This document shows, piece by piece, positions 21,636-54,042 of a stretch of DNA of 64,000 nt. Made by a program: the position numbers and the translations under genes. The stretch comes from a virus: positions 32,158 to 96,157 of the IMG/VR virus record IMGVR_UViG_3300025128_000017; one strand, 5' to 3'. The stretch's first letter is position 1; every line of letters begins with the position of its first letter. Under the pieces are notes generated by a model. It was given only the letters and a program-made list of their open reading frames with translations. It was not told the DNA's origin and made no database searches.

Positions 21636-22340
21636 ATGAGCAGCGGCTTTGGTAAAAACAGTGATTTTCATTATTTGTCGCCAAATTTTGTGTTAAAGGC
21701 GAAAAGGTCGGGCGAATATTCTACGCCTGACCATGTTTTGTTGGATAATGTTAGGAATAATAGGCCAAATTCAGCAGATGATAGGCTAACGCCGGAAGAA
21801 ATGCAAAGAAAAAAAATAGAAATGGCTATGATGAACAAACCTAACCCGGATATGATGAAAAGTGATGACAAAAAGAAACCTGCGATGGCTCTTGTGATTT
21901 CTGTTGGACCTAAAATGCCAAAAAAACCTACAGACACGGCAACTCCTGACAAAATGAAAAAATATGGTACTATGAAAAAAGCATGGAGTGTTTTAAAAAA
22001 TAACATGGAAGTTGGAATGTGCAAAAATTGTGAAGGTACTGGTAAAATTCCGTTTAGAGCATCGCAAGCAAGAGGAAGGTTTGACCCTAATCCAGAAGCA
22101 GGACAAATAGGAGACCCATGCCCATCATGCGGGGGTGATGGGAGTGCCCCTATAAGTGACCCTGCTTTTACATCAATGCAACAAAAATTAACTGGTGAGC
22201 CTATGAATTTAGCATTTAGATTACTTAAAGAGTCTATTGACCCTAAAAAATTAGCAGAAATGAGAGCAGCAAGAGATGCTGCTAGAAGACAAATGGGTCA
22301 ATCAAATCCCGAAAGAGGCGGAGATGTTGACCCAATTTGA
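21636..22340 (+). CDS. Tagged virion-region protein with DnaJ-type Zn finger
   Basis: AWSVLK and EPMNLAFRLLK tags flank CKNCEGTG...CPSCGGDG. Confidence 0.7.
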   Translation: MSSGFGKNSDFHYLSPNFVLKAKRSGEYSTPDHVLLDNVRNNRPNSADDRLTPEEMQRKKIEMAMMNKPNPDMMKSDDKKKPAMALVISVGPKMPKKPTDTATPDKMKKYGTMKKAWSVLKNNMEVGMCKNCEGTGKIPFRASQARGRFDPNPEAGQIGDPCPSCGGDGSAPISDPAFTSMQQKLTGEPMNLAFRLLKESIDPKKLAEMRAARDAARRQMGQSNPERGGDVDPI

Positions 22341-23322
22341 CATCGCTTGGTCTTTTTTGAAGGCCGATGATGATGCAAAGTTAATGGCTGAAATACAAAG
22401 GCAACTTGCTGAATTTAGAAATAATGAAAATATGAGCAACGATGTATCTGAGCAACCCGCTACAGAACCTCAATCTTTTAATCCAAGTGAAAGAAAACTT
22501 GCTTTTCCTAGAAAACGTAGTAAAAAATATTCTATACCAATAAGACAAGACGAATCGAATGAAGAATTTAAATTAGGACCTTCGTTTAGAGAAAGAACTG
22601 ATGAATCGCAAGGTTCACAAATGCAAATAGAAGAACAAAAACGACAAGCCGTTGAAAGATTAAAAAATAAAATAAAAAGAAAAAATGAAGTTGCAGTAAC
22701 GAGAGGCGGTAGTGGTGTTTACGCTGACGATGAACATGCAGAAACAGTTAGGCAAGATTGGTTAGACTCAATGTCTGATGATGAAAGACAAAGATTTGCA
22801 GAACATGAAGAAGATTTCAACACTTTGGCTATATTGGCAGAAATGAAAAGACAAGGTGCAGTAGACCAAGACGCATTGGGTATGTATGGAGAAAATCTTG
22901 CTAGTGGTGCTATGTTGTTGGCTACTCCTGAGTCACAGCGTGATGAAAATTGGAATAATGCATTGAAAAACCACAAATTGGCTCATGCTGTGCATAATGA
23001 TGAGTTAGACAATTCTTTTGATGGTTATGATAAAGTTTCAGACAATGTTGGTGTGGTTGATAACAACAAAAAAATGGCTGAAAAATTATATGGTTACAAA
23101 GAAGATGTTGACGAAGAAGAAGAAGACGATGGTGATGAATTACTTCCAGATGATTATGTTATGCCCGGTTCGCCAGTTGCTTTACAAAATGAAAAGAAAG
23201 AACAAGAAAATAATACTTTACAAAACGAAATTGCACGTCAAATTGCAGAATACAATAAAAACATGGTTGGTGTTACAAATAAACCACAATATACTGAAGA
23301 AGACTATGAAGCAGGTGATTAA
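22324..23322 (+). CDS. Acidic tagged protein
   Basis: Start MLTQFDIAWSFLKA with GGCGGAG RBS. Confidence 0.75.
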   Translation: MLTQFDIAWSFLKADDDAKLMAEIQRQLAEFRNNENMSNDVSEQPATEPQSFNPSERKLAFPRKRSKKYSIPIRQDESNEEFKLGPSFRERTDESQGSQMQIEEQKRQAVERLKNKIKRKNEVAVTRGGSGVYADDEHAETVRQDWLDSMSDDERQRFAEHEEDFNTLAILAEMKRQGAVDQDALGMYGENLASGAMLLATPESQRDENWNNALKNHKLAHAVHNDELDNSFDGYDKVSDNVGVVDNNKKMAEKLYGYKEDVDEEEEDDGDELLPDDYVMPGSPVALQNEKKEQENNTLQNEIARQIAEYNKNMVGVTNKPQYTEEDYEAGD

Positions 23323-23325
23323 CGC

Positions 23326-23340
23326 CAACAGTATATAAAG
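23326..23340 (+). promoter_or_regulatory. Promoter variant CAACAGTATATAAAG
   Basis: 15/15 identical to the copy at 12547. Confidence 0.5.
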
Positions 23341-23380
23341 CACAAGTTTTATTTACACACTACGTGTAGCATATATACAG

Positions 23381-23584
23381 ATGAGTGCGAGCCAAAGAGC
23401 GTTTGATGATGCTTGGTTGATGTTAAAGTCTCAGCCTGTAGGTTTGTCATTTACTAAATCTCAAAGAGACAAAATTGTTCATACAATTGTTAAGATGATG
23501 CAAAGTGATAACCCTGAAATGATAGAAAAAGCCACAGAATTGTACAGTCTCTACAATAATTCTTTTGATATTACTCTGAATTGA
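23381..23584 (+). CDS. Small tagged protein
   Basis: AFDDAWLMLKS. Confidence 0.7.
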   Translation: MSASQRAFDDAWLMLKSQPVGLSFTKSQRDKIVHTIVKMMQSDNPEMIEKATELYSLYNNSFDITLN

Positions 23585-23903
23585 AACCAGTTGTTGTGCC
23601 AGCGTGTTCTCTAGCGTCCGTAGCGGCTTCTTGTATTTTATTACCTGTGTCGCCTACTTTAGCACCAACTTTTTTCCCTGCTTTTCTGCCAGCCATACCA
23701 CCGACTAGTGAACCAACTCTTGCACCAATTGCTGTTCCAATTCCCGGAACTACACTTCCAATCGCAGCACCAAGTGCAGCACCACCAGCAGCACCTGCCG
23801 CAGTTCCACCAACAGCACCACCACCAGCACCTACTTTTCCTTCAGTGGTTTTAGCATCGCCGTATTTTAAAACAGACCACGCTTCTTCAAATGGGTCGAC
23901 CAT
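23571..23903 (-). CDS. Tagged glycine-zipper protein (opposite strand)
   Basis: PFEEAWSVLKY followed by GxxxG repeats (GAALGAAIGSVVPGIGTAIGARVGSLVGG). Confidence 0.75.
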   Translation of the reverse strand: MVDPFEEAWSVLKYGDAKTTEGKVGAGGGAVGGTAAGAAGGAALGAAIGSVVPGIGTAIGARVGSLVGGMAGRKAGKKVGAKVGDTGNKIQEAATDAREHAGTTTGFNSE

Positions 23904-23930
23904 AATAAGCGGAGGAAGGGGAAGGTAAAA

Positions 23931-24701
23931 ATGCTGTCGCCTTTCGTAAGACCTATCATGTACGTAGGTGTTATACGGAAAGCACCTGTAGATTTCTCAA
24001 CATATCAGCAAGTACAAGACAATGGAAGAACAATTCATACTGCTGATGCTTATGAAGATGGAACTGAAGCAAACGAATACACCTCTCCTAATTATCAATT
24101 AAGAGCAGAAACAGAAGGTTTAGGTGGTAGAAAACCGTTTGCACAAGTTGTTGCAGGAAAAGTAGGTAGAACACCAATAGGTACAGATACAGAAGACCAA
24201 AGTTTTGGAGAACCTACAAACATTAGAGGTAAGGCTACCTTTAGTAGAGTACCTGCAAGAGAAGATTTCAAATTAGATGATGAAGAAGCGGGAAATTTAG
24301 CAGCAGACAATGTTTATGTTGATGAAGCAGATAGAAGACGAGGTATTGGTTCTGACATGTACGATTTAATGGCACATATAGGTGAACGAAAAAATATGAA
24401 TTTAGTTCCATCTGAAAATCAAACCGCTGATGGAAAAAAATTTTGGAGTAAAAGTGGTCAAGAAGGTCAATGGAGGATTAATAGAAGTGAACCTATGAAT
24501 ATAACTTTACAACTACTAAAGGGAAAAAGTTACATTCAAGATAGACCAAAACGACTCGCACAAGCCAAAGTTCAACGTCTTAGCCGAAAAGTTAAGAACG
24601 CACGCACTCAACACAAGTACAAACGTAATTTGGCTCGTGGAGCAATTAGACCAAAAATGAGGACACAAACCGGATTAATTAGAGTAACAAGGAGTAGATG
24701 A
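23931..24701 (+). CDS. GNAT acetyltransferase-domain protein with internal tag and basic tail
   Basis: VYVDEADRRRGIGSDMY (motif A), QTADGKKFW; EPMNITLQLLKG; probable start MYVG at 23958. Confidence 0.7.
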   Translation: MLSPFVRPIMYVGVIRKAPVDFSTYQQVQDNGRTIHTADAYEDGTEANEYTSPNYQLRAETEGLGGRKPFAQVVAGKVGRTPIGTDTEDQSFGEPTNIRGKATFSRVPAREDFKLDDEEAGNLAADNVYVDEADRRRGIGSDMYDLMAHIGERKNMNLVPSENQTADGKKFWSKSGQEGQWRINRSEPMNITLQLLKGKSYIQDRPKRLAQAKVQRLSRKVKNARTQHKYKRNLARGAIRPKMRTQTGLIRVTRSR

Positions 24702-24702
24702 T

Positions 24703-24996
24703 ATGAAACCAATAGACGCAGCATTTTCTTTTTTAAAAGCAGCAGGACCAATGAGACAATTAATGGATAATCCAGCCGACCCACAGAGTGAGTTAGTTGC
24801 TGGTGATGATGAAAAATTACAACAAGCGTATGAAGAAGCACATAAAGAAATAGATGAGCATCATAAAAAGAAGCAGACTGCACAAAAAAGAAGAGATGAA
24901 ATGAATCATCGCAATTCCAAGAAAGATGTTGACAAATTCTATGAAGATAATCACCCTGATTTCTTTAGCAGTTTAACTAAACCTGAATTAGATTAA
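24703..24996 (+). CDS. Small tagged coiled-coil protein
   Basis: PIDAAFSFLKA. Confidence 0.7.
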   Translation: MKPIDAAFSFLKAAGPMRQLMDNPADPQSELVAGDDEKLQQAYEEAHKEIDEHHKKKQTAQKRRDEMNHRNSKKDVDKFYEDNHPDFFSSLTKPELD

Positions 24997-26181
24997 GTGA
25001 TTATGATGAACCCGTTTGACGTTGCTTTTGAATTTATTAAAGCACCTCCACCTGATTTATATTACAATGCTGAAGAAAGTGTACCATACGATAATGACGC
25101 AATGCATAATATAATGGGTACTGCTAAATTACAAGAAGTATTACAAGAAGACCCCGCTGTAATGGTAGATGCACATTTTGGTGCTTTCGATGAAGGTGTT
25201 AGAGGGGCAGATTTAAACCCAAAAGGGATGAATTATGGTATGCCTTATCATAAACTTATTACTAACCAACGAATGAAACCAGAAACAATTAATTTCATAA
25301 GAACTTTAGGAGCATCTGAAACATCTCCAGTTGGGATGAGTGTTGATGCAAAACAAATTTCAAACATAGTACATGACGGAGAAGATTGGATACACAGTAA
25401 AGAAAAAAATAAAGGTCATTGGCAATATTCAATCAAACCTCTTGTGGGTACATCAGAAACTGGAAGAAAACAATTTCCCAATTTTGATTTAGGTGATATG
25501 AGATTTTTAAATGATATGGAAAATATGTCCGATGAAGAAAAATTTCATAGAGATTTTTTCCTATCTGAAAAAGGGCAAGACATGTTTTATAGTGATGATA
25601 ATCATCATAAAGCGAAAAGAGATTCTATAGAATACTCCGTAAATGCACCAGATGAAAATTCTACTGCTGAAGAATTGATGACTTATTATTCTAATACAGG
25701 GGCAAAAGGTGCTGAATGGTATCCACATTTATCTGAAGCAGGAAGAAAATACATAAATAAAAATTTAGGAAAACCGGGATTTGCAAAGCCTATAAAAATC
25801 CTTATAGATAATGCAATGGTGGAAAGAAAGAGAGTTTTAGAGGCAAGGGAAGAGGCAAAGAAGCGAGGTCCTTTAGACGAACAAGGTAGACAAATTTCCG
25901 TTAAAAGCGAACCAATGGATATAGCCTTCCAATTACTGAAAGAACGTAAGTCACCTGAAGCGTTTGCCAACAAAAAGAAATACGATAGTGAATATCAAAA
26001 AACACCAAAGCGTGTAAAATATCGTGAACAACTAAATGCAGAACGTAGAAGAAGAGGAATATATGGCAAAGGTGGAAAAGATGTCAGCCATACACAAGGT
26101 GGAAAATTAACATTAGAAAGTGTTCATGCTAATAGAGCAAGACACTTTAAGAATAAAGGAACGCTTAGGAGAGTGAAATGA
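24997..26181 (+). CDS. Doubly tagged protein with C-terminal HNH-like domain
   Basis: PFDVAFEFIKA, EPMDIAFQLLKE; GKDVSH...NRARH. Confidence 0.65.
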   Translation: MIMMNPFDVAFEFIKAPPPDLYYNAEESVPYDNDAMHNIMGTAKLQEVLQEDPAVMVDAHFGAFDEGVRGADLNPKGMNYGMPYHKLITNQRMKPETINFIRTLGASETSPVGMSVDAKQISNIVHDGEDWIHSKEKNKGHWQYSIKPLVGTSETGRKQFPNFDLGDMRFLNDMENMSDEEKFHRDFFLSEKGQDMFYSDDNHHKAKRDSIEYSVNAPDENSTAEELMTYYSNTGAKGAEWYPHLSEAGRKYINKNLGKPGFAKPIKILIDNAMVERKRVLEAREEAKKRGPLDEQGRQISVKSEPMDIAFQLLKERKSPEAFANKKKYDSEYQKTPKRVKYREQLNAERRRRGIYGKGGKDVSHTQGGKLTLESVHANRARHFKNKGTLRRVK

Positions 26182-26248
26182 AACAAACATTACCTTTGCG
26201 GAGAATAAAAACAAGTAGTAGGTTTAATTGGTGGAAGTGTGACTTAAT

Positions 26249-26431
26249 ATGAGTTGTGAATGTGGTCATTGTGTAGGTATGGATGGAGCATGGGATATGC
26301 TTGAAAAAAAATTATGTCCTGCTGGTAAAGCGGCTGCAAAAAGAAAGTTCAAAGTTTATCCATCTGCATATGCTAATGGTTGGGCTGTACAATATTGTCG
26401 TGGTAAGTTTAAGGGGAAGAAAAAGAAATGA
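26249..26431 (+). CDS. Small basic tagged protein (PSAYA motif)
   Basis: AWDMLEKK then KVYPSAYANGWAVQYC. Confidence 0.7.
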   Translation: MSCECGHCVGMDGAWDMLEKKLCPAGKAAAKRKFKVYPSAYANGWAVQYCRGKFKGKKKK

Positions 26432-26640
26432 ATCATATTGCTAATGTGAAAGCATGGAATCTTCTCAAAGGGAAAGAGGATGCACCAAATTATCGGAAAG
26501 CCACAGGACCAAAAAAATGTGGTAATTGTAAAGCATGGGATTCTTCAAAAACAAATGACCCAATGACAGGGTATTGTGAAATGTATGATTTTACTTGTAG
26601 AGCAGACCATACTTGTGATGCATGGGTGAGTAAAAAATGA
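26428..26640 (+). CDS. Tagged 4-Cys HiPIP-like protein
   Basis: AWNLLKG; Y...CGNC...GYC...CDAW spacing. Confidence 0.55.
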   Translation: MNHIANVKAWNLLKGKEDAPNYRKATGPKKCGNCKAWDSSKTNDPMTGYCEMYDFTCRADHTCDAWVSKK

Positions 26641-26945
26641 CACGATGTACTTGTTATGATACTCTCGTAGTTAAAAACCTGAATCGTTGGTTTAAAGAAA
26701 AATGGGTAGATGTTTCAAGAAAAGACAAGGATGGCAAGCATCCACCGTGTGGGAGAAGTAAAGCAAAACTTTCAGGTAAAGGCTATCCAAAGTGTAGACC
26801 TTCTGTAAAAGTTTCAAGCGATACACCAAAAACTTCTGGTTCAATGAGTAGTGGACAAAAACAAGCAGCAACTAAAAGAAAAAGAGCCAAAAAACAAGGT
26901 GTTGGCGGAAAACCTACTATAGTAAAGATGGTTGGGGTGATATAA
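26637..26945 (+). CDS. Basic protein (L.RWFKE.WVD...CGR...YPKCRP family)
   Basis: Motif recalled from marine dsDNA viruses. Confidence 0.65.
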   Translation: MTRCTCYDTLVVKNLNRWFKEKWVDVSRKDKDGKHPPCGRSKAKLSGKGYPKCRPSVKVSSDTPKTSGSMSSGQKQAATKRKRAKKQGVGGKPTIVKMVGVI

Positions 26946-27298
26946 TGGAGCACGAGCCTTGTAATTGTTGCACACCTTTCCAACAAGCAACAGTCGCTTT
27001 GATGGATAATGTTTTTGAAAAGGCTAAAAAGAAATCTAAACCATTTCACGGTTACAATCCAAACAGACATAGCAGAAGTGGTGGTCTAAATGCAAAAGGT
27101 CGTGCAAAGTTCAAAAGAGAGACAGGTGCAAATCTTAAAAGACCTGTTACAAAGAAACCAAGTTCTCTAAAACCCGGTAGTAAAGCGGCAAAAAGAAGAA
27201 AGTCTTTCTGTGCAAGAATGGGTGGAAGTAAAGGTCCAACGAGCAAGGGTGGGAAACTTACCCCGAAAGGTGCAGCGTTGAAAAGATGGAATTGTTGA
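26945..27298 (+). CDS. Basic protein (GGL..KGR...RRKSFCARM...W.C, DUF6321-like)
   Basis: Motif recognition; GGTGA RBS. Confidence 0.65.
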   Translation: MEHEPCNCCTPFQQATVALMDNVFEKAKKKSKPFHGYNPNRHSRSGGLNAKGRAKFKRETGANLKRPVTKKPSSLKPGSKAAKRRKSFCARMGGSKGPTSKGGKLTPKGAALKRWNC

Positions 27299-31249: not shown

Positions 31250-31936
31250 GTGACCGAGCGTGAGCAAGTGACAAAAAGGTCCTGTGCCTTTTGTCAACAT
31301 CCTGATAGGAATGACTTGGAAGACATGATAAGGAACGGAGAAACTTCCATAAAAACTCTCGACAAAGACATGGGTTGGAGAGCCAATACAGCAGACCGTC
31401 ATTTTAGAAATCATATGGGAGAATATCACATGGCTGCTAATCCTAGTTGTGTAATTTGCACACATCCTGAAAGAGCAGAATTTGAAAATAGGTTTTTTAC
31501 AGATGGTTCTCAATCTGATATAATAGCCAAAGAATTAGATGTTGCTGAAAATACTGTTTACCATCATATGAAACATCACTTTCAACCTTTAGTACAAAGG
31601 TCTGCTGCTACTGAAGTTGTAGTAAAAGTAGGACATGAAGTGAATGTGTTGAGAAATAATGTAGAAAAACTCAATAATAGATTAAATGATTTCTTAGATG
31701 AATCTACAGGTTATGAAGATGGTTTTGTTCGAGATGCAGTTACATTACATAAAGAAGTTAGAGAAAGCATAAAAGATTTAGTCAAGTTCAATGAAGCATG
31801 GGGTACAACCGCAGAAGGTACTCAAGTCAATCAAACAATCAATATATTGAAAGTTGAATTGGCTAAAGAAAGTCCCGATACTTGGAAACGTATCAAGGCT
31901 GAATTATTACAAAACGGAGAGATTGAAATTGAATAA
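31250..31936 (+). CDS. Tandem Zn/HTH protein, candidate terminase small subunit
   Basis: Two CxxCxHP.R...H...H units plus coiled coil and QVNQTINI tail. Confidence 0.5.
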   Translation: MTEREQVTKRSCAFCQHPDRNDLEDMIRNGETSIKTLDKDMGWRANTADRHFRNHMGEYHMAANPSCVICTHPERAEFENRFFTDGSQSDIIAKELDVAENTVYHHMKHHFQPLVQRSAATEVVVKVGHEVNVLRNNVEKLNNRLNDFLDESTGYEDGFVRDAVTLHKEVRESIKDLVKFNEAWGTTAEGTQVNQTINILKVELAKESPDTWKRIKAELLQNGEIEIE

Positions 31937-32345
31937 TCAATTAGTTTCTGTTAGTGATTTGATGCAAATTACTCATCCGGGTCATAGATTTTTAATTTCC
32001 GATTATGATATTAAAGAAAACGATTTACCTATGTTTTTAGATTATTGCGTTGTTGTTTATGGGCGTTTTAAACACTACGCTGAAAATAATAATAATCTAC
32101 AAATTTCAGATAAAAGTTTGTATGACATTATGCAAGACTTGAAAAAAATGAGAGAAACGGATGAACCTTCTGAAATACATATACTCAGACAATCATTAAA
32201 AGGCGGTCTAATGGAATTTAGAAAAATTTGTAAATCGATGAGTGCTTGTTTTTCTTCTCCTTTGGTTGTTAAATCGTTCTATGATGCTTTAGGTGATAGA
32301 TTAACAGAACAAATTGTAATTTATGCGGGGATTGAATATGAGTAA
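31929..32345 (+). CDS. Hypothetical protein
   Basis: Helical ORF; start (TTG) uncertain. Confidence 0.6.
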   Translation: MNNQLVSVSDLMQITHPGHRFLISDYDIKENDLPMFLDYCVVVYGRFKHYAENNNNLQISDKSLYDIMQDLKKMRETDEPSEIHILRQSLKGGLMEFRKICKSMSACFSSPLVVKSFYDALGDRLTEQIVIYAGIEYE

Positions 32346-42578: not shown

Positions 42579-45500
42579 GTGCAAGAAAATGACATCGAGA
42601 TTTACTTAAGGCACAGAAATGATTTTTTAAAAAGTATTTTACAGTATGAAGACTATGACGATGAATTACTTTCTTTATCAAATACTATTATCAATCTCCA
42701 AAACAAAAACATATCTTTCACTAAGTCGTGGATAGATGAATATTGTCTTAAAATGGCGAGTGAAATAAGACCTGATTATATCATTAAAGAAAAAATTAAT
42801 CTTGAAAACTTACCAATAGATAATATCAGTATCAAGGATTTGGTGAATAGTAATCCTAATTTATCTAATAACGAAATACTTGCAAAATTAAAAGAAATGA
42901 GAAGTCAACGAAATCCTCCGTTTAAAACGAATTTTGATGATGATGATATTTTGATGCGTATTAACGATATTCGTTTTAAAAAATCAAAATTAAATCCAAC
43001 ACAATGGATAGAACAAGGGAATCCTCCTCCTACTAAAAGAGTTGTAAATGAAGTTAGTAGAGAAGAAGATTATGGTAGAATGAAAGGTAATGTAAAAGGG
43101 AGACAGTCTGCTGCCGATGAAGCCAATTTTCGTAATATTGATGAATATTTATTAGATGAAGGAAGAAGTTTAAGCGAAAGTGCTTCTTTATGGCCTACTA
43201 CGAAATCCGGTATAAGTCATTTTTTCGATAACAATAATCCTATGGTAGAACAACATCCAGTTAATGGTTTACCAAGACATTTAGATACTTCTATTAGATA
43301 CGTTTTAAGTGGTGAAGCAGATAAAGTGAAAAAAGCGGTAGAAGAACATTATGAGCACCATAAAAAATCTAAAAATCCGGTTGTGAGTGGAGTTGTGAAA
43401 CCAACTGGTTTAGGTACAAACATAAAAAATGTAAATACTGATGAAGATAAAGTACAAAAAAATGAAATTTACCATCCATTTATAGGTGAGACTAGTCAAA
43501 ACGGGGGATTAAATGGTTCACAATTACATGCTAAATCTTTAGAACAATTCAAAATGAATAACTTAGATACTGAATTTGATGGTAGAGAGTTAGATAATTT
43601 ATTTGAAGGGACTAAAAAAGTAAGTGAAATGAGTGATGATGAGATATTGAAAACTCATCTTATGACTTGGGCTGAAAAATCTAAAAGTAAAGATTTTATT
43701 AAACCTGATAAAACATACAAAGAATATTTGGCGGCTCAAGGTTTGGGTGAAAGTGAAATTACTAAAAAAGTTGAAGATGAACTAAGACAAGATTATGTTG
43801 CGAATGGGAAACAATGGCCTGAAGATGTTAAAGAACAAATTGCTATAGTTCAAAATCGTCTTGGTGAAATGCATGGTGATAATCATTATCATGGTGTTGG
43901 TTTTCTTACACATGCATTAGGTATAGAATTTTTATCACCACAAGATAGAACTACTGTTTTTAATCATTTGATGGAACATGGTACTGATAATGCTGATAAG
44001 CAAGTTATACAACTTTCTGACGGTAAATTAAATATGAGTTATTTGAAAACTCAAATGATGAGCCGTGTAATACCAGCATTAAATCATTCACAAAGAGCAC
44101 CAAATTTTGCTGGCCCTAATCTTTCTGCTAAATTTGAAGATGAAAAATTAAAATTTAAAGATAAATCGAGAACATTAGGTTTTGCAAATCATCTTTTAGA
44201 TAATTTAATTTTTACTCACGATGATGCACGTCATCCTAATTATGACGAGTTTAACAAAGGTGTAATGTCACAATATTTAATGGATGAACTAGGTCATGAT
44301 ATTTGCCGACAAGATGCTGAAAACGCACTTACAGGTGATAATAATCTTTCTTTATCTGATTTATTAGAGCATCATGGGATAAATGGTTATTATCAAAATG
44401 GTAAAATGAAAAAATTCACTACTGAAAACAGTTTTAATCAAAAATACAAAGATGGTAGAAATCTTGATGGTGAAACTTGGGGGCAAGTTGCTTTAAGAGA
44501 AAAAAGAGCCGCTGTAGAAAATAATGCTATCAAATGGCCTTCTTTAAGTAAAACGGGTATTGAGTTCGGTAATTTAAATAAAAAGCACATTAAAGAAATT
44601 TTAAATTGGGCAGATTATTATAGAAAATTAGATAAAACACCAGCAGAAATGAATTTAAGTGAAAAAACAGGTAAAGCATCACCTTTATGGTCAGCATATA
44701 CAAATTGGGCTGAAGGGAAAAAAGCACCTCATAGAAATCTTAATGAAAATGCACATGCAAACGAAGTGATGGAAAGAAGTGGAAATAAATGGAAATGGAA
44801 TGATATGGTTAATTTTCTCGGTTTCAACGAAAAGACAAATGAGGATGGTAGTATTACTTATAGTGAAAGGGGAAAACATGACATGTTACCTTTGCGAAAT
44901 ACACCATATTTTACTAACAAAGAAATGCAAGCAGTAAAAGAACATTATGAACATAGTAGAAGTTTATCTAATAAATCTAAAAATATTAGAAATATTTCAA
45001 AACCTTTTAGGATAGGCTCTAATGGTATTAGAAAAGAAGATTTACCTAAATCTGAAGATGGAATAACGGAATACGGTGTAGATAAAGGATTCTTAACAAG
45101 TGAAAAAGATGAAAATAAACTTGAAGGTTTAGGTAGAATGTTTCATGACATTTACGATACAAGGGGTGGACATGGTATATCTGATACTCAGTTCTTATCT
45201 ATTTTACATGACCATCATGCACACTATGTAAATAAAAACGCTAAAGTCGGTGAAGTATATTCAAAATCTATTTTTGGTGAGAAAAGACGACAAAGTTTAG
45301 ACGATATTAATGAACAAGGTAAATCTCAATCATTTAGTAGTACTTTATCCCCTTTGATGCACAATGAAAAAATAACAGGTTTAATTAGTTTTTTACTACC
45401 TAGTAATTTACCAGCAGGTGCAAGAATACATAAAGGGGTAAAAGACATAATGAGTTTACACGGTTCAAGTTCTATTAGAACTCGAAAAGATGAAAATGGT

Positions 45501-48500
45501 AATGTAACATTATCACCCGGTTTAAATGATAAAAATGATACTGACCGTATATCGGCTAGACATCCTGATGTAATCAATCAAGGTAAAAGAAGAGATAAAT
45601 TTGGCGACATAGATGGTGGAGATGCATATTTTATTAATACACATGGTAAAAATCCACATGTTTTACACGACCCCTACGTTGTTAGTAATCGAGTCAATTC
45701 TTTCATTTCAGATGGTAAAATTAACAATCTATCGAAAATAAAACAAATATTAGGCATGAGCCATGCTATGAGTCATAGAGGTAGTGATATTGTATCAGAT
45801 ATAAGGCAAAAAAATGATATTGGTGATTTTTGGGGTTTTGATTTTGGTTTACATAATAATGGGAAACCTAATACATTCCTTAAGAGTAAAGATATTTTAA
45901 GCCCTGAAAATATTAAAAAATTAAAAATAAATACAGATATTGACGAGTCACAATTAAGAGAATTACTTGCTTTGTCAACTAAAGTTGGGAGAAAAGAGTT
46001 TGCAGATGAGATACATGATTTTACACAATCACCGATAAATAATCAAGAAATACAACAAGGTACTGTTGAAGACATAGGTTCTCTTTTAGAACAATTAAAA
46101 GGAGAAAAATTAGAATTAGAAACTAGAAGAGATTCAGCAGGTCTATCATATGAGAAATTTGGCTCAACACAACAAGATTATGATAAAGGTCCATTAAATG
46201 ATTTTAGTAGAACTTCTGCTATCTATAAGCCGTTAAATACTAGTGAAAAAAATAGATTAAAAGAGTTAGATGAAGAAATAAATCATGTACAAAATCAACT
46301 AAACGTGATAGAAGATAAGCATTATTCTAATAGTTTCAGTGCAGAAAAAAATCGTTTTGACCACGAAGAAGAAGGGAGAGTAAGAGATGAACATGCTAAA
46401 TTGGATTTTGCTAAAGAACATTTGTTACCTAAAGTGCTTGAAAATTTTCCAGATGCTTTTAATGCAGATGTAGTAGGGGCACACCAAGTCAAAATTAACA
46501 TGGCACAATTATTGCACGATGCAGAAATTGGATTGTTAACTGTACCTCATAAAGTGCATAATTTGAAAAGTTATGGTAGTGTAATAGGTGAAAGTGAATC
46601 GCAGACTATGCAACAACTTAGTAAAACAGGTAAAGGTCATCATGACGATATACAGAAAATAATGAGTCAACATGGAGTTGGTTTGAATGATTTTGGTAAC
46701 GATGAATATGGTAATTCTAATTTAACTGCACAAAATTTAGTAGAAAAACTTGGTTTAGAACTTAATCCAGATAATTTAATGTATGCTCAACAATTAATAA
46801 ACAGTCATATTGGTAAAAATAATAAAGTTATGACTTTAGGACAATTGCTTAGTAAGCATCCAAATCTTTCAAAAATACCCAAATTAGATGAAAATGGGGA
46901 ACAAATGATAGATGAAAATGGGGAACAAATCTATGAAGATACTTGGGATAAAACTAATAATTCTAAAGAACGTCAAGAACTACTTGCAAGTCATTATAGA
47001 AAAGCATCGCAAGCCGTACCGCCTACTTTAGAAAAAATACCTAAAAGAGATGAATTTGGTAATTTAGTAAAAGATGAAGAAGGTAACATGGTGTTTGATA
47101 TGCAACCTAAAAAAATATCAAGAGGTAAACTAGCAACAGGTGGCTCTTTTGATTTACATCCAAATCCTACTAAAGTAAGAAACGAGCATTATAGAACTCA
47201 TCCAATATATAATCACATAAGAGATATACATAAAAAAATGAATATTTCTCCAAAGAGTGCACAATTTGATTCATTAAAAAATGATTACGGTTTAGTCTAT
47301 GAAAAGAACGGTGAAATAGGAAGTGGTATGAATGTAGGGAAAAAACAGCATAAAGACAATTTACATAACATGTTAGACAGTGTTATAGTTTATGATGCTG
47401 ATTATGATGAAAAACTAGCCAACCCGACTGATGAAAAAACAATAACTAGACCAAGTTTTTCACAAGGTGAAGTAGAAATACATCCACATCATGAACAGAA
47501 AGGTAGAACCTTATCTACAGTATATACTGGTGGCGGTATTGCTCCAATAGCAAGTACTATGACAAACTCACAAGCAAATTTCGCATTTAATTTCACCAAA
47601 GGAGGAAATATAAACATAGGGAATTATGCTACACCTCGTGCTCATGTTCCGCCACCTGCTGGTGTTTACCCATATATATTAGGGGAAGAACAACATCAAA
47701 TGAATACAAATGTCGTTTTAGGAGACCAAACATCGGCTCAAATACATGAAAATCCTCAAACGTCTTCTCAAAGTGACGAACTTGTTTATGCTGATATATC
47801 TCATGTGGCTAAAGCCGAATTGCCTATAGAAATGCCTTTAATAGAACCTTTACATAAAATATTCAAAATTACCGATATTGAACAATTAAGAGGATTTACT
47901 GGTGAATGGGTGGCTTCTATACAAGAAGATGGTAAAAGATTGAAAGTAAAAAGAACAGGAAACAGAATTACTTTAACTGATGGAAATGCACAAAGAGTAG
48001 ATAGTTATAGTGAAATGGATAAGTATTTTAGAAAAATTACTAGTAAAAATTATGTTATAGATGTCATTATGAATGACGAAGGTATTTTCATCAGTGACGT
48101 AATGCATTACGATGGGACAGATGTGACCGATTTAGATACTAGAGATAGAATGAAACTACTTAGAGGTCAGTTTGAAAGTCATAATTTTATTCATGTGCTT
48201 GGTCCTTCAACTTTAAAAATTACAGACGAAGATGGTCTTGAAAATGCAGTGAAAGATTTACTATCTGATAATAAAGATAAAAAGATATTACTAAGAGATG
48301 CTAAATCTACATATATGAAAGGAGAAGAAAAACATCCGAAATGGATTATGATGACTAAGTCATACGATGATTATCATATTCCTTTTGATATGGAAATTGA
48401 AAATGAACAGTTCATATTACATTTTGCTGACGACATTGTGAAATATGATATTTTAGATGACGGGGTATTACTAGACGTTTTGAATCCTAAAAGTATGTTA

Positions 48501-49010
48501 GGGGAATTGTATGATGATAATTATCCATTAACATTAGCCAAAAGTTTAGAAAAATATTGGCAACCTGCGTTTCGTCAAATGTGGAAAGCAGAAAAAAAGA
48601 AACGCCTTACATCTAAAGTTGATATGAATATGCCGAGTAAACCTAACGATAAAAAAATTGAAGTTGAAAGTGCAGGTATTATTGATGCTGATGATGAATC
48701 TAGGATAATGAAACCAAAAAGAGAGCAGATGTTAAAAACATTAGAATTGATAGCAAGGGCATTAGACGTTTTAGAAAAAGGGCACAGTAATATGGCTGGT
48801 AGAGGGCTAGGGATTGACGTAGGGGCACAGATAGAAAGTCCTCGTGGTCCTACTCGTTTAACGTCTGAAGAAAGTATGCCTGACTGGGATATGAAAGAAA
48901 GACCCACTGAAGATATGGAAAAACCTGAAAAATATCCCGGTAGAGACAAAAAAATGAAGATTTCTGAAGAAAATCATGAAGAAATAGAAGAAGACTTAGA
49001 CACTTATTGA
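42579..49010 (+). CDS. Giant head-region protein with degenerate ATP-dependent DNA ligase domain
   Basis: EWVASIQEDGKR, SDVMHYDG.D...L..RDR..LL, S.Y..G...KW. Confidence 0.75.
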   Translation: MQENDIEIYLRHRNDFLKSILQYEDYDDELLSLSNTIINLQNKNISFTKSWIDEYCLKMASEIRPDYIIKEKINLENLPIDNISIKDLVNSNPNLSNNEILAKLKEMRSQRNPPFKTNFDDDDILMRINDIRFKKSKLNPTQWIEQGNPPPTKRVVNEVSREEDYGRMKGNVKGRQSAADEANFRNIDEYLLDEGRSLSESASLWPTTKSGISHFFDNNNPMVEQHPVNGLPRHLDTSIRYVLSGEADKVKKAVEEHYEHHKKSKNPVVSGVVKPTGLGTNIKNVNTDEDKVQKNEIYHPFIGETSQNGGLNGSQLHAKSLEQFKMNNLDTEFDGRELDNLFEGTKKVSEMSDDEILKTHLMTWAEKSKSKDFIKPDKTYKEYLAAQGLGESEITKKVEDELRQDYVANGKQWPEDVKEQIAIVQNRLGEMHGDNHYHGVGFLTHALGIEFLSPQDRTTVFNHLMEHGTDNADKQVIQLSDGKLNMSYLKTQMMSRVIPALNHSQRAPNFAGPNLSAKFEDEKLKFKDKSRTLGFANHLLDNLIFTHDDARHPNYDEFNKGVMSQYLMDELGHDICRQDAENALTGDNNLSLSDLLEHHGINGYYQNGKMKKFTTENSFNQKYKDGRNLDGETWGQVALREKRAAVENNAIKWPSLSKTGIEFGNLNKKHIKEILNWADYYRKLDKTPAEMNLSEKTGKASPLWSAYTNWAEGKKAPHRNLNENAHANEVMERSGNKWKWNDMVNFLGFNEKTNEDGSITYSERGKHDMLPLRNTPYFTNKEMQAVKEHYEHSRSLSNKSKNIRNISKPFRIGSNGIRKEDLPKSEDGITEYGVDKGFLTSEKDENKLEGLGRMFHDIYDTRGGHGISDTQFLSILHDHHAHYVNKNAKVGEVYSKSIFGEKRRQSLDDINEQGKSQSFSSTLSPLMHNEKITGLISFLLPSNLPAGARIHKGVKDIMSLHGSSSIRTRKDENGNVTLSPGLNDKNDTDRISARHPDVINQGKRRDKFGDIDGGDAYFINTHGKNPHVLHDPYVVSNRVNSFISDGKINNLSKIKQILGMSHAMSHRGSDIVSDIRQKNDIGDFWGFDFGLHNNGKPNTFLKSKDILSPENIKKLKINTDIDESQLRELLALSTKVGRKEFADEIHDFTQSPINNQEIQQGTVEDIGSLLEQLKGEKLELETRRDSAGLSYEKFGSTQQDYDKGPLNDFSRTSAIYKPLNTSEKNRLKELDEEINHVQNQLNVIEDKHYSNSFSAEKNRFDHEEEGRVRDEHAKLDFAKEHLLPKVLENFPDAFNADVVGAHQVKINMAQLLHDAEIGLLTVPHKVHNLKSYGSVIGESESQTMQQLSKTGKGHHDDIQKIMSQHGVGLNDFGNDEYGNSNLTAQNLVEKLGLELNPDNLMYAQQLINSHIGKNNKVMTLGQLLSKHPNLSKIPKLDENGEQMIDENGEQIYEDTWDKTNNSKERQELLASHYRKASQAVPPTLEKIPKRDEFGNLVKDEEGNMVFDMQPKKISRGKLATGGSFDLHPNPTKVRNEHYRTHPIYNHIRDIHKKMNISPKSAQFDSLKNDYGLVYEKNGEIGSGMNVGKKQHKDNLHNMLDSVIVYDADYDEKLANPTDEKTITRPSFSQGEVEIHPHHEQKGRTLSTVYTGGGIAPIASTMTNSQANFAFNFTKGGNINIGNYATPRAHVPPPAGVYPYILGEEQHQMNTNVVLGDQTSAQIHENPQTSSQSDELVYADISHVAKAELPIEMPLIEPLHKIFKITDIEQLRGFTGEWVASIQEDGKRLKVKRTGNRITLTDGNAQRVDSYSEMDKYFRKITSKNYVIDVIMNDEGIFISDVMHYDGTDVTDLDTRDRMKLLRGQFESHNFIHVLGPSTLKITDEDGLENAVKDLLSDNKDKKILLRDAKSTYMKGEEKHPKWIMMTKSYDDYHIPFDMEIENEQFILHFADDIVKYDILDDGVLLDVLNPKSMLGELYDDNYPLTLAKSLEKYWQPAFRQMWKAEKKKRLTSKVDMNMPSKPNDKKIEVESAGIIDADDESRIMKPKREQMLKTLELIARALDVLEKGHSNMAGRGLGIDVGAQIESPRGPTRLTSEESMPDWDMKERPTEDMEKPEKYPGRDKKMKISEENHEEIEEDLDTY

Positions 49011-49053: not shown

Positions 49054-50409
49054 GTGCAGCCGAGACTCCAGTACAAACCTTCTGATGAACCTATCAGTTT
49101 GCTTAAAGCAGGGAATGAACTCATTGTTGCAGGATATGCCAGTGTTGAACTGGTAGACAAGCAAGGGGACTTAATAACACAGGGAGCGTTAAAAGACGGA
49201 TTTACAAAATTCATGCAAAATCCATCATATAGAAACGTACAGTTAGCACATTCAAATATACAAGTAGGAGATGTCATTCCAAATTATACGGATAGCGAAG
49301 GGAGGTTGTGGAAAAGCGAAGTTGACGATGTCGGAATGTTTGTTGTAATAAAACTACGTGACGACATTGAAAAAGCCAAAGAAGTCGCTGCCGAAATACG
49401 AAAAGGTGCTTTACGTGGCTTTAGTATCGGTGGACAGGCATTCAAGAGAGTCAGAAAATCAGACCCTAAACATGGCGATTATCAAGAAATCAGTAAACTC
49501 GAACTCCATGAAATCACAATTTGTGAAAAAGGAATAAACCCGGAAGCAACATTCAGAATATTAAAGGAAGATAAACAAGAAGAAAAAAACAAGGTGAATA
49601 AAATGACAGAAGATGATACAATGAACCAGATGACCGACGTGCTCTCTCGATTAGAGTCACGTCTTGACTCAATGGAAAAAGGAGAAAAACCTGCTTTCCT
49701 TGAAGATAAAAAAGATGAAAGCAAGGATGAAAAAGCAGAATCGAAAGATGATAAGAAAAAATCTGATACAGAATATTCTGATGTTATTACATCCGACTAC
49801 CTAAACTGGATGGAAGATACTCTAAAGAGTGCAGGAGTAGACACAATGGCTGCTCGTGCTCACTTTGATGGTGATTCAGTTGCAAAACAAAACATGGGTT
49901 CAACGCCCGGTGAATTACAAGGTAGTGACGTAACTAATGGTGGACAAGCACCTCTACGTCAACAAGAAGGAGGAAATCCATCTACAGGAGCAATCCCTAA
50001 ACTCAACAGCGGTGGAGATGTAAAGAAATCAGATTTCTTGAATCCTACAGATTTAGATGCATCTGATGTAGAAGCAGCATATGAAGTTTACAAAGCAGCG
50101 GCTCTTGAACAAGAATTCCGCAGCAGTTTGGAAAACGATTTTGCTACAAGATACCAATCAGAACGTGCAGAAGAAATAGCAAAAGCAGAAGCAGCATCTT
50201 ACGATGCTCGTGGTCCTTTAGATGCTATTACAAAAGCAATTGCTGAACTATCAGAAAGAATTGATAGTATTGGTACACCAGCAGAAGTAGGAGAAACACT
50301 ACAAAAATCTGCTGCACCACAACATGAAGTTCCATCAACTTCTGACCTAGCACAAATGTCTTGGGATGAAGTACATCAACTCGCAGGTCGAGTCTTTGAG
50401 GGAGAGTGA
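49054..50409 (+). CDS. Prohead protease fused to scaffold
   Basis: AGYASVE.VDKQGD, H, GFSIGG, EIT.C..G.NP.A. Confidence 0.92.
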   Translation: MQPRLQYKPSDEPISLLKAGNELIVAGYASVELVDKQGDLITQGALKDGFTKFMQNPSYRNVQLAHSNIQVGDVIPNYTDSEGRLWKSEVDDVGMFVVIKLRDDIEKAKEVAAEIRKGALRGFSIGGQAFKRVRKSDPKHGDYQEISKLELHEITICEKGINPEATFRILKEDKQEEKNKVNKMTEDDTMNQMTDVLSRLESRLDSMEKGEKPAFLEDKKDESKDEKAESKDDKKKSDTEYSDVITSDYLNWMEDTLKSAGVDTMAARAHFDGDSVAKQNMGSTPGELQGSDVTNGGQAPLRQQEGGNPSTGAIPKLNSGGDVKKSDFLNPTDLDASDVEAAYEVYKAAALEQEFRSSLENDFATRYQSERAEEIAKAEAASYDARGPLDAITKAIAELSERIDSIGTPAEVGETLQKSAAPQHEVPSTSDLAQMSWDEVHQLAGRVFEGE

Positions 50410-50414
50410 ATAAA

Positions 50415-51593
50415 ATGGCAAGAAATTACGTAAGAACAATAACTGATATGGAAAGATACTATTATGGAGCAGGTAACGCAATGGGTTACTCATACTCCGG
50501 TAGCGAATTACTGAAGGCTGACAGCCCAATGTTGTCCACAACTGCTGGTACATACCAAGCAATTTATGGACGCAAAGTGTGGTCACAATTGAACCAAGAG
50601 TTCAACGCTTTCTCAATTCTACCAAAGAAACCTTGGGATAGGTCAGGATGGCGTGTTATAACTGGCAAGCCTTCAGATGCTACCACTGGTTCATTACTTG
50701 GTGGAGTTGCAGAAAACGCAACATTACCTGACACACAAAGGCCAACATTCCAGCACATAGCAGCAAAACCAAAGACAATCGCTCATACATTCGATATGTC
50801 TGAAACTGCTATCTTCCTTGCTGACAAGGATGACGGAATGGGAGATATACGCTCAGTTCTTAAAGAAGAAATGGGTAAACATCACGCAGAATCTATTAAC
50901 AAAATGTTGTTAGACAAAGTAGACAATACAGCAGGTAACAATTTTGAGTCACTTGACAGAATTACAGCAGCACATAATGATGACGCTAATTCAAAAACCG
51001 GATTAGATGCAGACCATAATGTTCTTTCAGCAACCAGTAACTTAGATATATACAGTATTGGTAGAGAAGCAAATAGGTCTTGGGCTAATGCTGAAATGAG
51101 TAACAATATTGTTAGCGATACAGCAACTGACAGAGTTCTATCACTAGATGTCTTGGATGATATATTCCAAAGACTTTGGGTACGTGGTGGAAATCCAAAA
51201 GTTATACTAACTGGATATGATACATTGATGAGATTACAACAACTATTACAATCTCAACAAAGATTCATGGAAGAGAAGAGAGTTACACCTACTTACAATG
51301 GAGTAAAGGGTGTACCCGGTATCGAGGCTGGATTCATCGTAGCAACATACAACGGTGTCCCAATCATCCCATCTAAAGATGTGGCAAAAGACACAATTGC
51401 TAGAATGTATTTACTAGATACAGATTACCTACACTTCAGTACAGCAATACCAACACAATACTTTGAGTCTGGTATAGAGACAGGAGACCCATTCGCAATA
51501 AACAGACTAGGACAGGAAGGACTTTACCGAACAATGGGTGAAATTTGGACGACTTTCTTTGGAGCACAAGGACAGGTGAGAGACCTTAAGTAA
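50415..51593 (+). CDS. Major capsid protein (HK97 fold)
   Basis: Position after protease; GGVAENA.LP, YNGVPIIPSKDV, YRTMGE. Confidence 0.92.
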   Translation: MARNYVRTITDMERYYYGAGNAMGYSYSGSELLKADSPMLSTTAGTYQAIYGRKVWSQLNQEFNAFSILPKKPWDRSGWRVITGKPSDATTGSLLGGVAENATLPDTQRPTFQHIAAKPKTIAHTFDMSETAIFLADKDDGMGDIRSVLKEEMGKHHAESINKMLLDKVDNTAGNNFESLDRITAAHNDDANSKTGLDADHNVLSATSNLDIYSIGREANRSWANAEMSNNIVSDTATDRVLSLDVLDDIFQRLWVRGGNPKVILTGYDTLMRLQQLLQSQQRFMEEKRVTPTYNGVKGVPGIEAGFIVATYNGVPIIPSKDVAKDTIARMYLLDTDYLHFSTAIPTQYFESGIETGDPFAINRLGQEGLYRTMGEIWTTFFGAQGQVRDLK

Positions 51594-51625
51594 GGTTTTT
51601 GTGGAGATTAATGGAGGAATAAATT

Positions 51626-52111: not shown

Positions 52112-52122
52112 GATGATTCTTC

Positions 52123-52500
52123 ATGCCACAAGTAAAATACATAGGAAAATACCACAGCAGTCCTCCACCGAGAGGATTGACATACACAGTGTATCGTGGT
52201 ATATCTTACCAAGTTAGCCAAAAGTGGGTTGACGAGTTTGGTAGTAGTTTAAATGAAAACTACGTAATTACAGGTGCAGAAGCAAAGACCGTTGATAAAT
52301 TAAATGATGGAATACCTGACTCCGGTTGGAGAATAGGAGACATTAAGAAATGGTTGAAAGCAGAAGGAGTTTCTTTCGGTGCTGGTTACAGGACAAAAGG
52401 TGCATTATTGGGTTTAGTTGAGGAACATCTAAATCCAGCACCACCTGTGGTCGAAACAGAAGAAACCACTGAAGTGGTAGAAGAACAAACAATGGAGTGA
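52123..52500 (+). CDS. HeH/Rho-N-like domain virion protein
   Basis: WRIGDIKKWLKAEGV...TKGALLGLV. Confidence 0.55.
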   Translation: MPQVKYIGKYHSSPPPRGLTYTVYRGISYQVSQKWVDEFGSSLNENYVITGAEAKTVDKLNDGIPDSGWRIGDIKKWLKAEGVSFGAGYRTKGALLGLVEEHLNPAPPVVETEETTEVVEEQTME

Positions 52501-52506
52501 TAAATT

Positions 52507-52773
52507 ATGGCAATAACAGTAACAATTGATGATAGACCAGCAGTATTAGGAAACATGTACATGGTAACAGGAACATATACAATAAGTGGCGGTGTAGCAA
52601 CAGGTGCAGTAGACCTAAGCAGTCAACTAAGTAGTATCTTATCCGTCACCGTTAATCCATCAGCAGCAGATATGTGTCATGCACATTTTGCTAACAGTGG
52701 AGATACAACTTTCGATATAGTGCATGCAGGTAACAACAAAAGTGGTAGATTTACAGCAATAGGACAACGCTAA
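52507..52773 (+). CDS. Small beta-rich structural protein
   Basis: Composition and position. Confidence 0.55.
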   Translation: MAITVTIDDRPAVLGNMYMVTGTYTISGGVATGAVDLSSQLSSILSVTVNPSAADMCHAHFANSGDTTFDIVHAGNNKSGRFTAIGQR

Positions 52774-52786
52774 GGCGGTGTTTTAG

Positions 52787-52999
52787 ATGGCAGTTAGTCC
52801 TAAAATACAAGTAATTGGACCTTTCTCGCCAGCGGATTTTTCGCCAAATAATCTTGGTGCATACAATACCGCTGGTAGTGTGAGTAAAGCAATGACAGAT
52901 GCGGCAGCATCTACACCCGGCTCTACATTAGTAGCAGTAGAACCGATTACTGTTTTAGGTAACGTATATCTAATATTATCTTTAACAGGCAACGCATGA
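52787..52999 (+). CDS. Small structural protein
   Basis: GGCGGTG RBS, co-oriented. Confidence 0.5.
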   Translation: MAVSPKIQVIGPFSPADFSPNNLGAYNTAGSVSKAMTDAAASTPGSTLVAVEPITVLGNVYLILSLTGNA

Positions 53000-53014
53000 G
53001 AGTGAGGGATATGA

Positions 53015-53314
53015 ATGGGTTTCGATGTTAGAACATTAGAAATTGACGATATATCGAGAGCACAGAAACAAAACGTTAGAGTTGATACCGCTTATGATAG
53101 CGGTTCAGTTTTTGATGAGGCAAATCCATTAAAGGGAGTCACAAGAAATCAGCGAGCGAGAACAGAAAATGTTGGCGATGTTTTGAATATAGGTGCAGGG
53201 ACTAGATGTACATACTGTGGTATGCTTCATTTTATGTGGAGAGCAGATTGTGGGGCTTGTGGCAAACCGATGGAATTTAACAAAGGGCATAGAGATGAGG
53301 TGAATAGATTATGA
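53015..53314 (+). CDS. Zn-ribbon protein
   Basis: CTYC...CGAC. Confidence 0.65.
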   Translation: MGFDVRTLEIDDISRAQKQNVRVDTAYDSGSVFDEANPLKGVTRNQRARTENVGDVLNIGAGTRCTYCGMLHFMWRADCGACGKPMEFNKGHRDEVNRL

Positions 53315-54042
53315 ATGATATATTTGATTTAACTTGGGATTTTATGAAAGCAAGAAAACAAAGAGATTATTATAAACACCAAAAAATAGCCATGCCACCG
53401 GGTATGAAATTGATGGACCACAAAGGTAAATCACATGGAACATTAGGTAAAAAACATGTTGGTAAAGATAGTTTGTCTTTATCACAATATATAAATTCTT
53501 TAGCACATAGAATGCATGGTAGTAAAGATGCAGATACTAAGAATAAATTGGTGAGTAGTATGATGTTAAACGCTGTTAGCCCAGAAAATCCATATAATTT
53601 AAAATTCCTTGCAGACCATTCAAGACTAGGTAACAAAATGGCTATGAATCCATTAGCAGTTAATAATGACGGTCATCACGTTTCAGGACCTAATGGAGAC
53701 CATGCACATCATGACAAATTTACTGATATGTATCCGCAACATCATTTTAATGAGGATGGGCAAGCAGCACAAATGAAGCAGAAACCATCTCATGAACCTC
53801 AACCTGAACCTCAACCTGAACCTATGCCTGAGCCTATGGCTCAACCCATGAGTCATTCAGAAATGGTTCGACAAGCGATAGATGCAGTAGGACCTGACCA
53901 TCAAAAAATAATGGAATATATTGGTAATATGTCAGCACAACCTCAATCTCAACCTGAACCTATGCCCGAACCTATGCCTGAACCTAGACCTCAAGTTGGA
54001 GTTACGGGGCAAACCAGTCTCCAAGATTTTGGGTTTAATTAA
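53311..54042 (+). CDS. Tagged His/Pro-rich protein
   Basis: IFDLTWDFMKA; PEPQ/PEPM repeats. Confidence 0.7.
   Translation: MNDIFDLTWDFMKARKQRDYYKHQKIAMPPGMKLMDHKGKSHGTLGKKHVGKDSLSLSQYINSLAHRMHGSKDADTKNKLVSSMMLNAVSPENPYNLKFLADHSRLGNKMAMNPLAVNNDGHHVSGPNGDHAHHDKFTDMYPQHHFNEDGQAAQMKQKPSHEPQPEPQPEPMPEPMAQPMSHSEMVRQAIDAVGPDHQKIMEYIGNMSAQPQSQPEPMPEPMPEPRPQVGVTGQTSLQDFGFN

Follow-up and report, generated by a model that had tools for sequence, protein, structure and literature searches.

A recurrent helical tag on unrelated late proteins of a marine virus, a putative docking and cleavage signal of the prohead

The stretch of DNA analyzed here (the window) comprises 64,000 nucleotides, the final 64 kb of one 96,157-bp virus record (IMG/VR record IMGVR_UViG_3300025128_000017, positions 32,158 to 96,157). 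The virus is a group A magrovirus of ocean archaea; its genome encodes both SNF2 and thermosome, the signature of the group A magroviruses, whose hosts are marine group II archaea (PMC5434244). A short peptide tag recurs on otherwise unrelated late proteins of this virus. It consists of about 11 residues that form an autonomous amphipathic helix: Asn/Asp/Glu-Pro caps the helix, Phe/Met, Ala, Trp/Phe and Leu make up its hydrophobic face, and Leu-Lys closes it. We consider it somewhat probable that this helix is a docking element ending in a cut site for the prohead protease, analogous to the capsid-targeting sequence (CTS) of T4. Such a load-and-cut label is taken as the most likely reading because the Leu-Lys ending of the tag sits where the capsid protein and the protease should be trimmed. 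The recurrence of this ending in the virus's own capsid protein and protease appears to be new here. None of the papers searched describes the motif, and the founding magrovirus paper does not contain the words 'motif', 'polyprotein' or 'internal'.

A tag profile was derived from the regular-expression hits and scored over six frames of the whole 96-kb genome. The thirteen copies listed in the initial annotation were all found in place when the translations were checked. The profile divided them into ten strong copies (13-18 bits) and three weak ones (3.8-6.5 bits), and the highest-scoring match outside the list had 8 bits. The copies, followed by one possible extra, are:

22197..22232, plus strand: internal tag of the E-P-M form in a 234-residue Zn-finger-like protein (gene 21636-22340); 14.8 bits, translation checked
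22333..22365, plus strand: N-terminal tag of an acidic 348-residue protein (gene 22276-23322); 18.3 bits
23396..23431, plus strand: N-terminal tag of a 67-residue protein (gene 23381-23584); 16.3 bits
23862..23897, minus strand: N-terminal tag of a glycine-zipper protein (gene 23571-23903); 16.4 bits
24489..24524, plus strand: internal tag of a 256-residue protein (gene 23931-24701); 13.2 bits
24706..24741, plus strand: N-terminal tag of a 97-residue protein (gene 24703-24996); 16.2 bits
25009..25044, plus strand: N-terminal tag of a 394-residue protein (gene 24997-26181); 14.8 bits
25909..25944, plus strand: internal tag of the same 394-residue protein, heading a conserved basic HNH-like module; 18.1 bits
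32746..32781, plus strand: internal tag of a 426-residue protein (gene 32323-33603); 15.3 bits
53317..53352, plus strand: N-terminal tag of a 243-residue protein (gene 53311-54042), kept in the orthologues of three related loci (L013-L015); 15.4 bits
21981..21998, plus strand: weak short form, core only, inside gene 21636-22340; 3.8 bits, fits the core pattern
26279..26302, plus strand: weak degenerate copy in a 60-residue Cys-rich basic protein (gene 26249-26431), with one residue extra before the Lys; 6.5 bits
26452..26472, plus strand: weak short form close to the N-terminus of a 70-residue protein (gene 26428-26640); 5.0 bits, the core also being present in a complete relative (G004) at 55037
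31871..31903, plus strand: possible extra weak copy near the C-terminus of a helix-turn-helix protein (gene 31250-31936); core pattern only

The last of these could be a chance match. A chance test was carried out by shuffling each of 116 proteins 2000 times. The full tag pattern was observed 9 times in this protein set compared to a shuffle mean of 0.04 (maximum 2), and the six-residue core 15 times compared to 3.4 +/- 1.8 (maximum 10). A chance origin of the tag copies was rejected, the shuffle expectation being far below the observed counts. The helical hydrophobic moment exceeded the shuffle mean in 11 of 12 copies.

All thirteen listed copies are in genes of the late arm. The first part of this arm, at 22.2-26.5 kb, holds nine copies, and single ones follow at 32.7 kb and 53.3 kb; two window genes hold two copies each. 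The tagged gene at 53311-54042 sits 1.7 kb downstream of the capsid gene, both here and in relatives. The minus-strand early arm, about 40 kb in the genome, ends at window position 21064 and encodes an SNF2 helicase and an ArdC-like protein. The six-frame profile found no strong copy of the tag in this arm, as the initial annotation had stated.

The head module contains two proteins in which the ending of the tag recurs:

49054..50409, plus strand: prohead protease of the Peptidase S78 family whose C-terminal half is helical and scaffold-like; PF04586, E 3.3e-9, 37.5 bits versus a cut-off of 21; phrog_80
49087..49113, plus strand: tag-like site before the protease domain, residues 12-20, Lys18; 59 relatives
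49537..49569, plus strand: tag-like site closing the protease domain, residues 162-172, Lys171; fits the tag core, nearly invariant in 59 relatives
50406..51593, plus strand: HK97-fold major capsid protein; phrog_24667, E 1e-61; PF17236; PDB 6j3q
50502..50522, plus strand: predicted capsid maturation site, Leu-Leu-Lys37 followed by Ala-Asp-Ser-Pro; 124 homologues

The S78 protease gene adjoins that of the HK97-fold capsid protein, which starts 4 bases before the protease stop. The N-terminus of the protease consists of 18 residues ending in Leu-Leu-Lys, followed by Ala-Gly, and directly precedes the conserved start of the catalytic domain. In the 59 relatives, the Lys18 site is kept as hydrophobic-x-hydrophobic-[LV]-K-[AGS] and the residues before it vary. 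The second site, Thr-Phe-x-Ile-Leu-Lys-Glu at Lys171, leads into an acidic, variable linker and then the scaffold-like helices; it aligns gap-free with the Met-Lys-Ser at the domain end of HK97 gp4, where a Lys is also found. The AlphaFold2 (AF2) model of the protease-scaffold had a mean predicted local distance difference test (pLDDT) score of 48.6, too poor for placing the tag-like sites, and its long C-terminal helices were used. The protease profile had no match in the PDB sequence search.

Conservation of the capsid site was evaluated in 124 homologues of 30-55% identity. The residue at P1 was Lys in 72% and Arg in 13% (Lys or Arg in 85%), P3 was hydrophobic in 74%, P1' was Ala, Thr or Ser, P2' was Asp in 77% and P4' was Pro in 70%, while the N-terminal piece before it, 37 residues here, varied in both length and sequence. 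The hydrophobic-Leu-Lys end of the tag, followed by Ala, Glu or Gly, recurs at three head-protein sites: capsid Lys37, protease Lys18 and protease Lys171. The residues found most often after the Lys of the tag in related loci (Glu 25%, Ala 20%, Gly 12%) are those that follow these three sites.

The capsid and protease sites within one virus resemble each other, in a match that is not strict. Leu-Lys is present at all three sites of this virus, the two sites both read Ser-Lys-Ala in HVTV-1 and in HCTV-1, and the methanogen virus vir519 has Asn rather than Lys at P1 of both. The aligned protease and capsid sites are the sole places where HVTV-1 (L153; 11313-12545, 17868-19781, 19797-21170) has Ser-Lys-Ala-Asp. 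In the 'head assembly' protein gp114 of this cultivable virus, Leu-Ser-Lys-Ala-Pro is found at about residue 228. A likeness of the tag to the conserved Pro-Ala-Asn-Pro-x-Ala at S78 domain ends is off by one residue and was not relied on.

In HK97, the S78 protease gp4 cuts the capsid protein gp5 at K103/S104 (PMC10275583). The system described here shares with HK97 the S78 protease, the capsid fold, a Lys at the boundary of the propeptide (a predicted one here) and the N-arm, and the aligned end of the protease domain, and the protease and capsid protein of this virus appear to be members of the HK97-type maturation system. The HK97 capsid protein carries a scaffold domain of 103 residues, whereas the putative propeptide here has 37 residues and the scaffold-like part is on the protease; moreover, HK97 has no known set of tagged cargo. 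The proposal that the tag is clipped after its Lys was supported indirectly, in that its last three residues match the capsid propeptide boundary and both ends of the S78 domain, and HK97 cuts after Lys103.

The T4 CTS is carried by the internal proteins IPII and IPIII and by the Alt propeptide and is removed by the prohead protease gp21 (Mullaney and Black 1996; PMC9958956). It loads foreign proteins, and gp21 activates by N-terminal self-cleavage (PMC9958956). Like the T4 CTS, the tag is a peptide of about 10 residues on otherwise unrelated proteins, which in T4 are non-essential. The T4 CTS ends in the motif of its own protease, which also trims the capsid protein and the protease itself; a parallel here would follow from the HK97 precedent. 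In contrast to T4, the host is an archaeon, the protease is of the S78 (HK97) type rather than the gp21 family, and the predicted P1 residue is Lys instead of Glu. The tag also occurs internally, with up to four copies per polyprotein, and C-terminally, is found on at least 47 payload families, and is known here from sequence alone. The comparison with T4 made by the initial annotation therefore stands as an analogy, with a protease of the HK97 rather than the T4 type.

In the giant phages phiKZ, 201phi2-1 and SPN3US, head proteins are cut by the prohead protease after A-x-E (PMC5694885, PMC10052503). Many head-internal or ejected proteins of these phages likewise have propeptides that are removed at one common motif, although the motifs there are three residues long and were found by mass spectrometry, whereas the 11-residue helix here was read from the genome. 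The tag system is analogous to those of T4 and the giant phages and not a member of them, since it differs in protease family, in P1 residue and in the domain of its host.

According to the load-and-cut reading, the S78 prohead protease, fused to its scaffold-like domain, would recognize the tag and cut after the Lys. The longer helical part would dock the cargo to the protease-scaffold or to the interior of the shell, and the tagged proteins would thereby be enclosed in the prohead together with the protease-scaffold before cutting. N-terminal tags would then be clipped off, and fused modules would be split inside the head, so that precursors with an acidic-tag-basic layout and multi-tag polyproteins would give rise to separate internal proteins. 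The released pieces would include basic, probably DNA-binding ones and a membrane-active glycine-zipper protein that may exit with the DNA. Clipping and splitting are proposed because of the site matches and the HK97 precedent; the docking helix and enclosure in the prohead are likewise conjectural.

If this reading is correct, the tag would mark, from the sequence by itself, orphan magrovirus proteins as virion cargo, such as injected effectors, DNA-condensing core proteins or membrane-active pilot proteins. Magroviruses rank with the most abundant viruses that infect marine archaea, and a function is known for only a minority of their genes. The "load and clip" logic of T4 and the giant phages would extend to archaeal viruses with an HK97-type protease and a specificity for Lys instead of Glu, and a concrete cut site is predicted for this branch of the S78 family. 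Furthermore, a short portable tag able to bring arbitrary proteins into an HK97-fold shell would be of practical use as a tool.

Several points weigh against this reading. Magroviruses are uncultivated, and both packaging and cleavage are inferred. The 11 conserved residues exceed what a protease usually reads, a stable helix is an unusual protease substrate, and the tags located near C-termini, with just 3-5 residues beyond the Lys, gain nothing by cutting. The nine clustered tags lie 23-27 kb upstream of the head genes, outside the head module, and the 2143-residue protein encoded between the portal and protease genes carries no tag even though it is likely to be packaged. The protease Lys site falls inside the Pfam S78 match, and the capsid and protease Lys sites could be conserved for structural reasons. 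One related locus, L158, differs at P2, with Ala at the capsid site and Leu at the protease site. Four further scans for related loci gave 11 distant loci, and the more distant capsid and protease pairs were uninformative, including L167, which has Arg at P1. A co-fold in which the protease-scaffold and the capsid protein were combined with a tag segment of 40 residues gave a score of 0.00 and the outcome 'no answer', which speaks neither for nor against binding; the three-chain design also departs from the calibration.

The possibility was considered that the tag is purely a docking label that binds the shell interior, the scaffold or the portal and is never cut, the Leu-Lys match being a coincidence. 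Cargo-loading peptides of this kind are used by encapsulins; they are uncut, and their consensus differs from that of the tag. The tag resembles them in being a short portable peptide found on unrelated cargo and at either end of it, and an HK97-fold shell would be its putative address. Such a label would account for the tags at extreme C-termini, where cutting is pointless, and 11 conserved residues in a helix suit a peptide that binds a groove. In addition, a short amphipathic scaffold helix of HK97 lines the capsomer interior just upstream of the cut site (PMC10275583). However, the Lys is the best conserved position of the tag, modules meet exactly at the tags, of which a polyprotein may have up to four where one would suffice for docking, the acidic-tag-basic layout resembles a pro-protein, and the three head-protein sites share the ending. 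Docking without cutting is considered fairly unlikely.

The tag was followed in relatives by fetching loci around homologues and counting as a tagged frame any with a copy of at least 10 bits. In all, 170 tagged frames were found, corresponding to 119 unique open reading frames (ORFs) that fall into 47 clusters without other mutual similarity. The initial view of a modular, portable tag on unrelated late proteins therefore applies to the whole family. By position, 61 of the tags fall in the first 25 residues, 75 are internal and 7 are located 3-5 residues from the C-terminus, so that the earlier description of the motif as N-terminal or between domains covers both of the positions it named and omits a C-terminal one. 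A 960-residue ORF (L084:7433-10312) has four copies at domain boundaries, and other ORFs of relatives have 2-3 tags each, independent modules in one frame being parted by the same short site.

Two forms of the tag were distinguished. The N-terminal form reads Met, Asn/Lys/Asp, Pro, Phe, Asp, x, Ala, Trp, x, Leu/Val/Phe, Leu, Lys, and the internal form consists of a hydrophobic residue, x, x and Gly/Ser, followed by E-P-M-D-I-A-F-Q-L-L-K. The Met of the internal form aligns with the Phe or Ile of the N-terminal form. Upstream of the tag, 12 homologues of the module that ends gene 24997-26181 are unrelated in sequence, and from the tag onward they are conserved; similarly, the part from the 25909 tag onward is the sole part of the 394-residue protein that is conserved in 40 related loci. 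The tag thus belongs to the downstream module. In the AF2 model of this module, the tag is a helix (residues 15-25, pLDDT 60-70) and is followed by a Ser-Pro break.

A role at the level of nucleic acid or translation was also considered, in which the internal copies would be in-frame restarts with a ribosome-binding site and an ATG, or the DNA would be a recombination joint for cassettes. The Met of the internal form is encoded by ATG in 49 of 49 internal copies from relatives, and several copies within one genome share identical 18-mers, which could favor module exchange as a by-product. However, third codon positions vary at nearly all conserved residues of these copies; synonymous codons are free to vary, and therefore selection acts on the peptide, consistent with the original assertion that the motif is conserved as protein and not as DNA. 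Before the Glu, GGC and AGC codons are as frequent as GGT and GGA, no Shine-Dalgarno sequence being kept, the Met corresponds to Phe or Ile in the N-terminal form, and C-terminal copies cannot be starts. The internal start was rejected on this codon evidence, and a nucleic-acid role as a whole is regarded as extremely unlikely.

The pieces that follow the internal tags are basic. The isoelectric point (pI) is 12.0 for the 59-residue tail after the tag at 24489, 10.7 for a further piece of 79 residues and 11.2 for the 274 residues after the tag at 32746, while the pieces before internal tags are acidic to neutral (pI 5.2-6.3). By analogy, this acidic-tag-basic layout is as in pro-proteins that release a basic part by cutting. 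The payload labels of the initial annotation were borne out in part. The glycine zipper was confirmed (gene 23571-23903; Pfam Gly-zipper_Omp, E 7e-6), and both the gene and its tag are also present in the related locus L081; the payload could be membrane-active. Small basic proteins rich in Cys are also among the payloads. The HNH-like label of gene 24997-26181 rests on a beta-beta-alpha unit at the end of the AF2 model together with the motif. The GNAT match was weak and below the cut-off, and the Zn finger and Fe-S-like labels were assigned by inspection only. Among 48 tagged proteins, Pfam identified only DUF5872, Gly-zipper, HD_4 and HSA, in one member each.

The glycine-zipper gene is on the minus strand within the plus-strand late arm and is overlapped by a 115-residue plus-strand frame (window 23571-23928) that is probably spurious; the arrangement is repeated in L081. 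Small, very basic proteins run on after the tag cluster (26249-27298). They include matches to DUF5872 (E 7e-12) and DUF6321 (E 1e-16) and the Cys-rich 60-residue protein, and only some of them have a weak tag. These proteins are candidate DNA-condensing core proteins.

A degenerate DNA pattern for the core gave 13 forward matches and no control matches in a complete 115-kb relative with the same clustered layout. Of five further records, at least four had a clear excess of the pattern (G008 being equivocal), which occurred only at the control level in HVTV-1 and three more distant relatives. The exact internal form was present in 30 IMG/VR stretches, and its pattern occurred in only two contigs of metagenome-assembled genomes (MAGs) among 185,579 species genomes. 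Since the core pattern is at the control level in distant relatives and the exact form is nearly absent from species genomes, the tag in its present form is confined to one magrovirus clade, where dozens of unrelated payloads that change fast carry it, and is not copied from a host protein. Host mimicry was rejected on the same two-contig count for the exact internal pattern.

The first of the two contigs, L122 (NZMJ01000140.1, labelled Maricaulis sp. MAG), is mis-binned. The window at 27.4-36 kb is syntenic with this whole 8-kb locus (eleven genes, 28-74% identity, the GTPase block included), and L122 is a magrovirus contig that was binned into a bacterial MAG. The second, L121:2043-2072 (JAUXED010000011.1, a Bacteroidota MAG), has the exact 30-base internal-tag pattern in a 31-residue frame. 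Chance alone would give about 0.07 matches of this kind across the collection, and the 8-kb locus is otherwise dissimilar to the virus.

A reader of the tag unrelated to the capsid is considered decidedly unlikely. One candidate is the virus thermosome, for which the tag would mark clients or recruit proteins; a host factor is another, and the tag could also direct proteins to a membrane or to a virus factory. The thermosome gene (PF00118, E 1e-121 to 1e-131) was found in 7 of 7 tag-bearing records compared to 0 of 3 tagless relatives; however, this co-occurrence is confounded by clade, as the tag-bearing records all come from a single one, and the completeness of the tagless records is 31-83%. 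Most of the tags are far from the head genes and beside a block of membrane-protein and GTPase genes, and binding of head proteins by the tag is itself putative. On the other hand, a non-capsid reader leaves unexplained both the matching capsid and protease Lys sites and the tagged gene within the head-tail block. As for a host factor, the exact internal tag was found in no true host genome, the two matches among the species genomes being the mis-binned virus contig and an isolated short frame. We know of no chaperonin that reads a sequence tag, and recognition by the thermosome, the group II chaperonin that the virus encodes, is regarded as very improbable. If true, it would represent the first sequence-coded chaperonin address, and a changeable set of proteins would be routed to the private folding machine of the virus, perhaps for hand-over to the head. 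The thermosome gene lies in the early arm upstream of the window (G000:C1:13808-15229).

Other genes of the head and tail are also encoded in the window, among them the tail genes and the following:

36841-38334: large terminase
39510-41246: portal
42579-49010: 2143-residue protein between the portal and protease genes

In IMG/VR, more than 590 close relatives of the capsid protein are present, and among cultivated viruses those nearest to it are from the Haloarcula viruses HVTV-1, HCTV-1 and HCTV-5 (32-34% identity). A match of the 2143-residue protein to DNA ligase was weak and sub-threshold. In its place, HVTV-1 has three genes that encode a 1048-residue protein, the 'head assembly' protein and a 1313-residue protein with a zeta-toxin domain. 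A 389-residue ORF at 38359-39528, between the terminase and the portal, had a weak match to LAGLIDADG (E 0.002, below the cut-off) and may encode a homing endonuclease.

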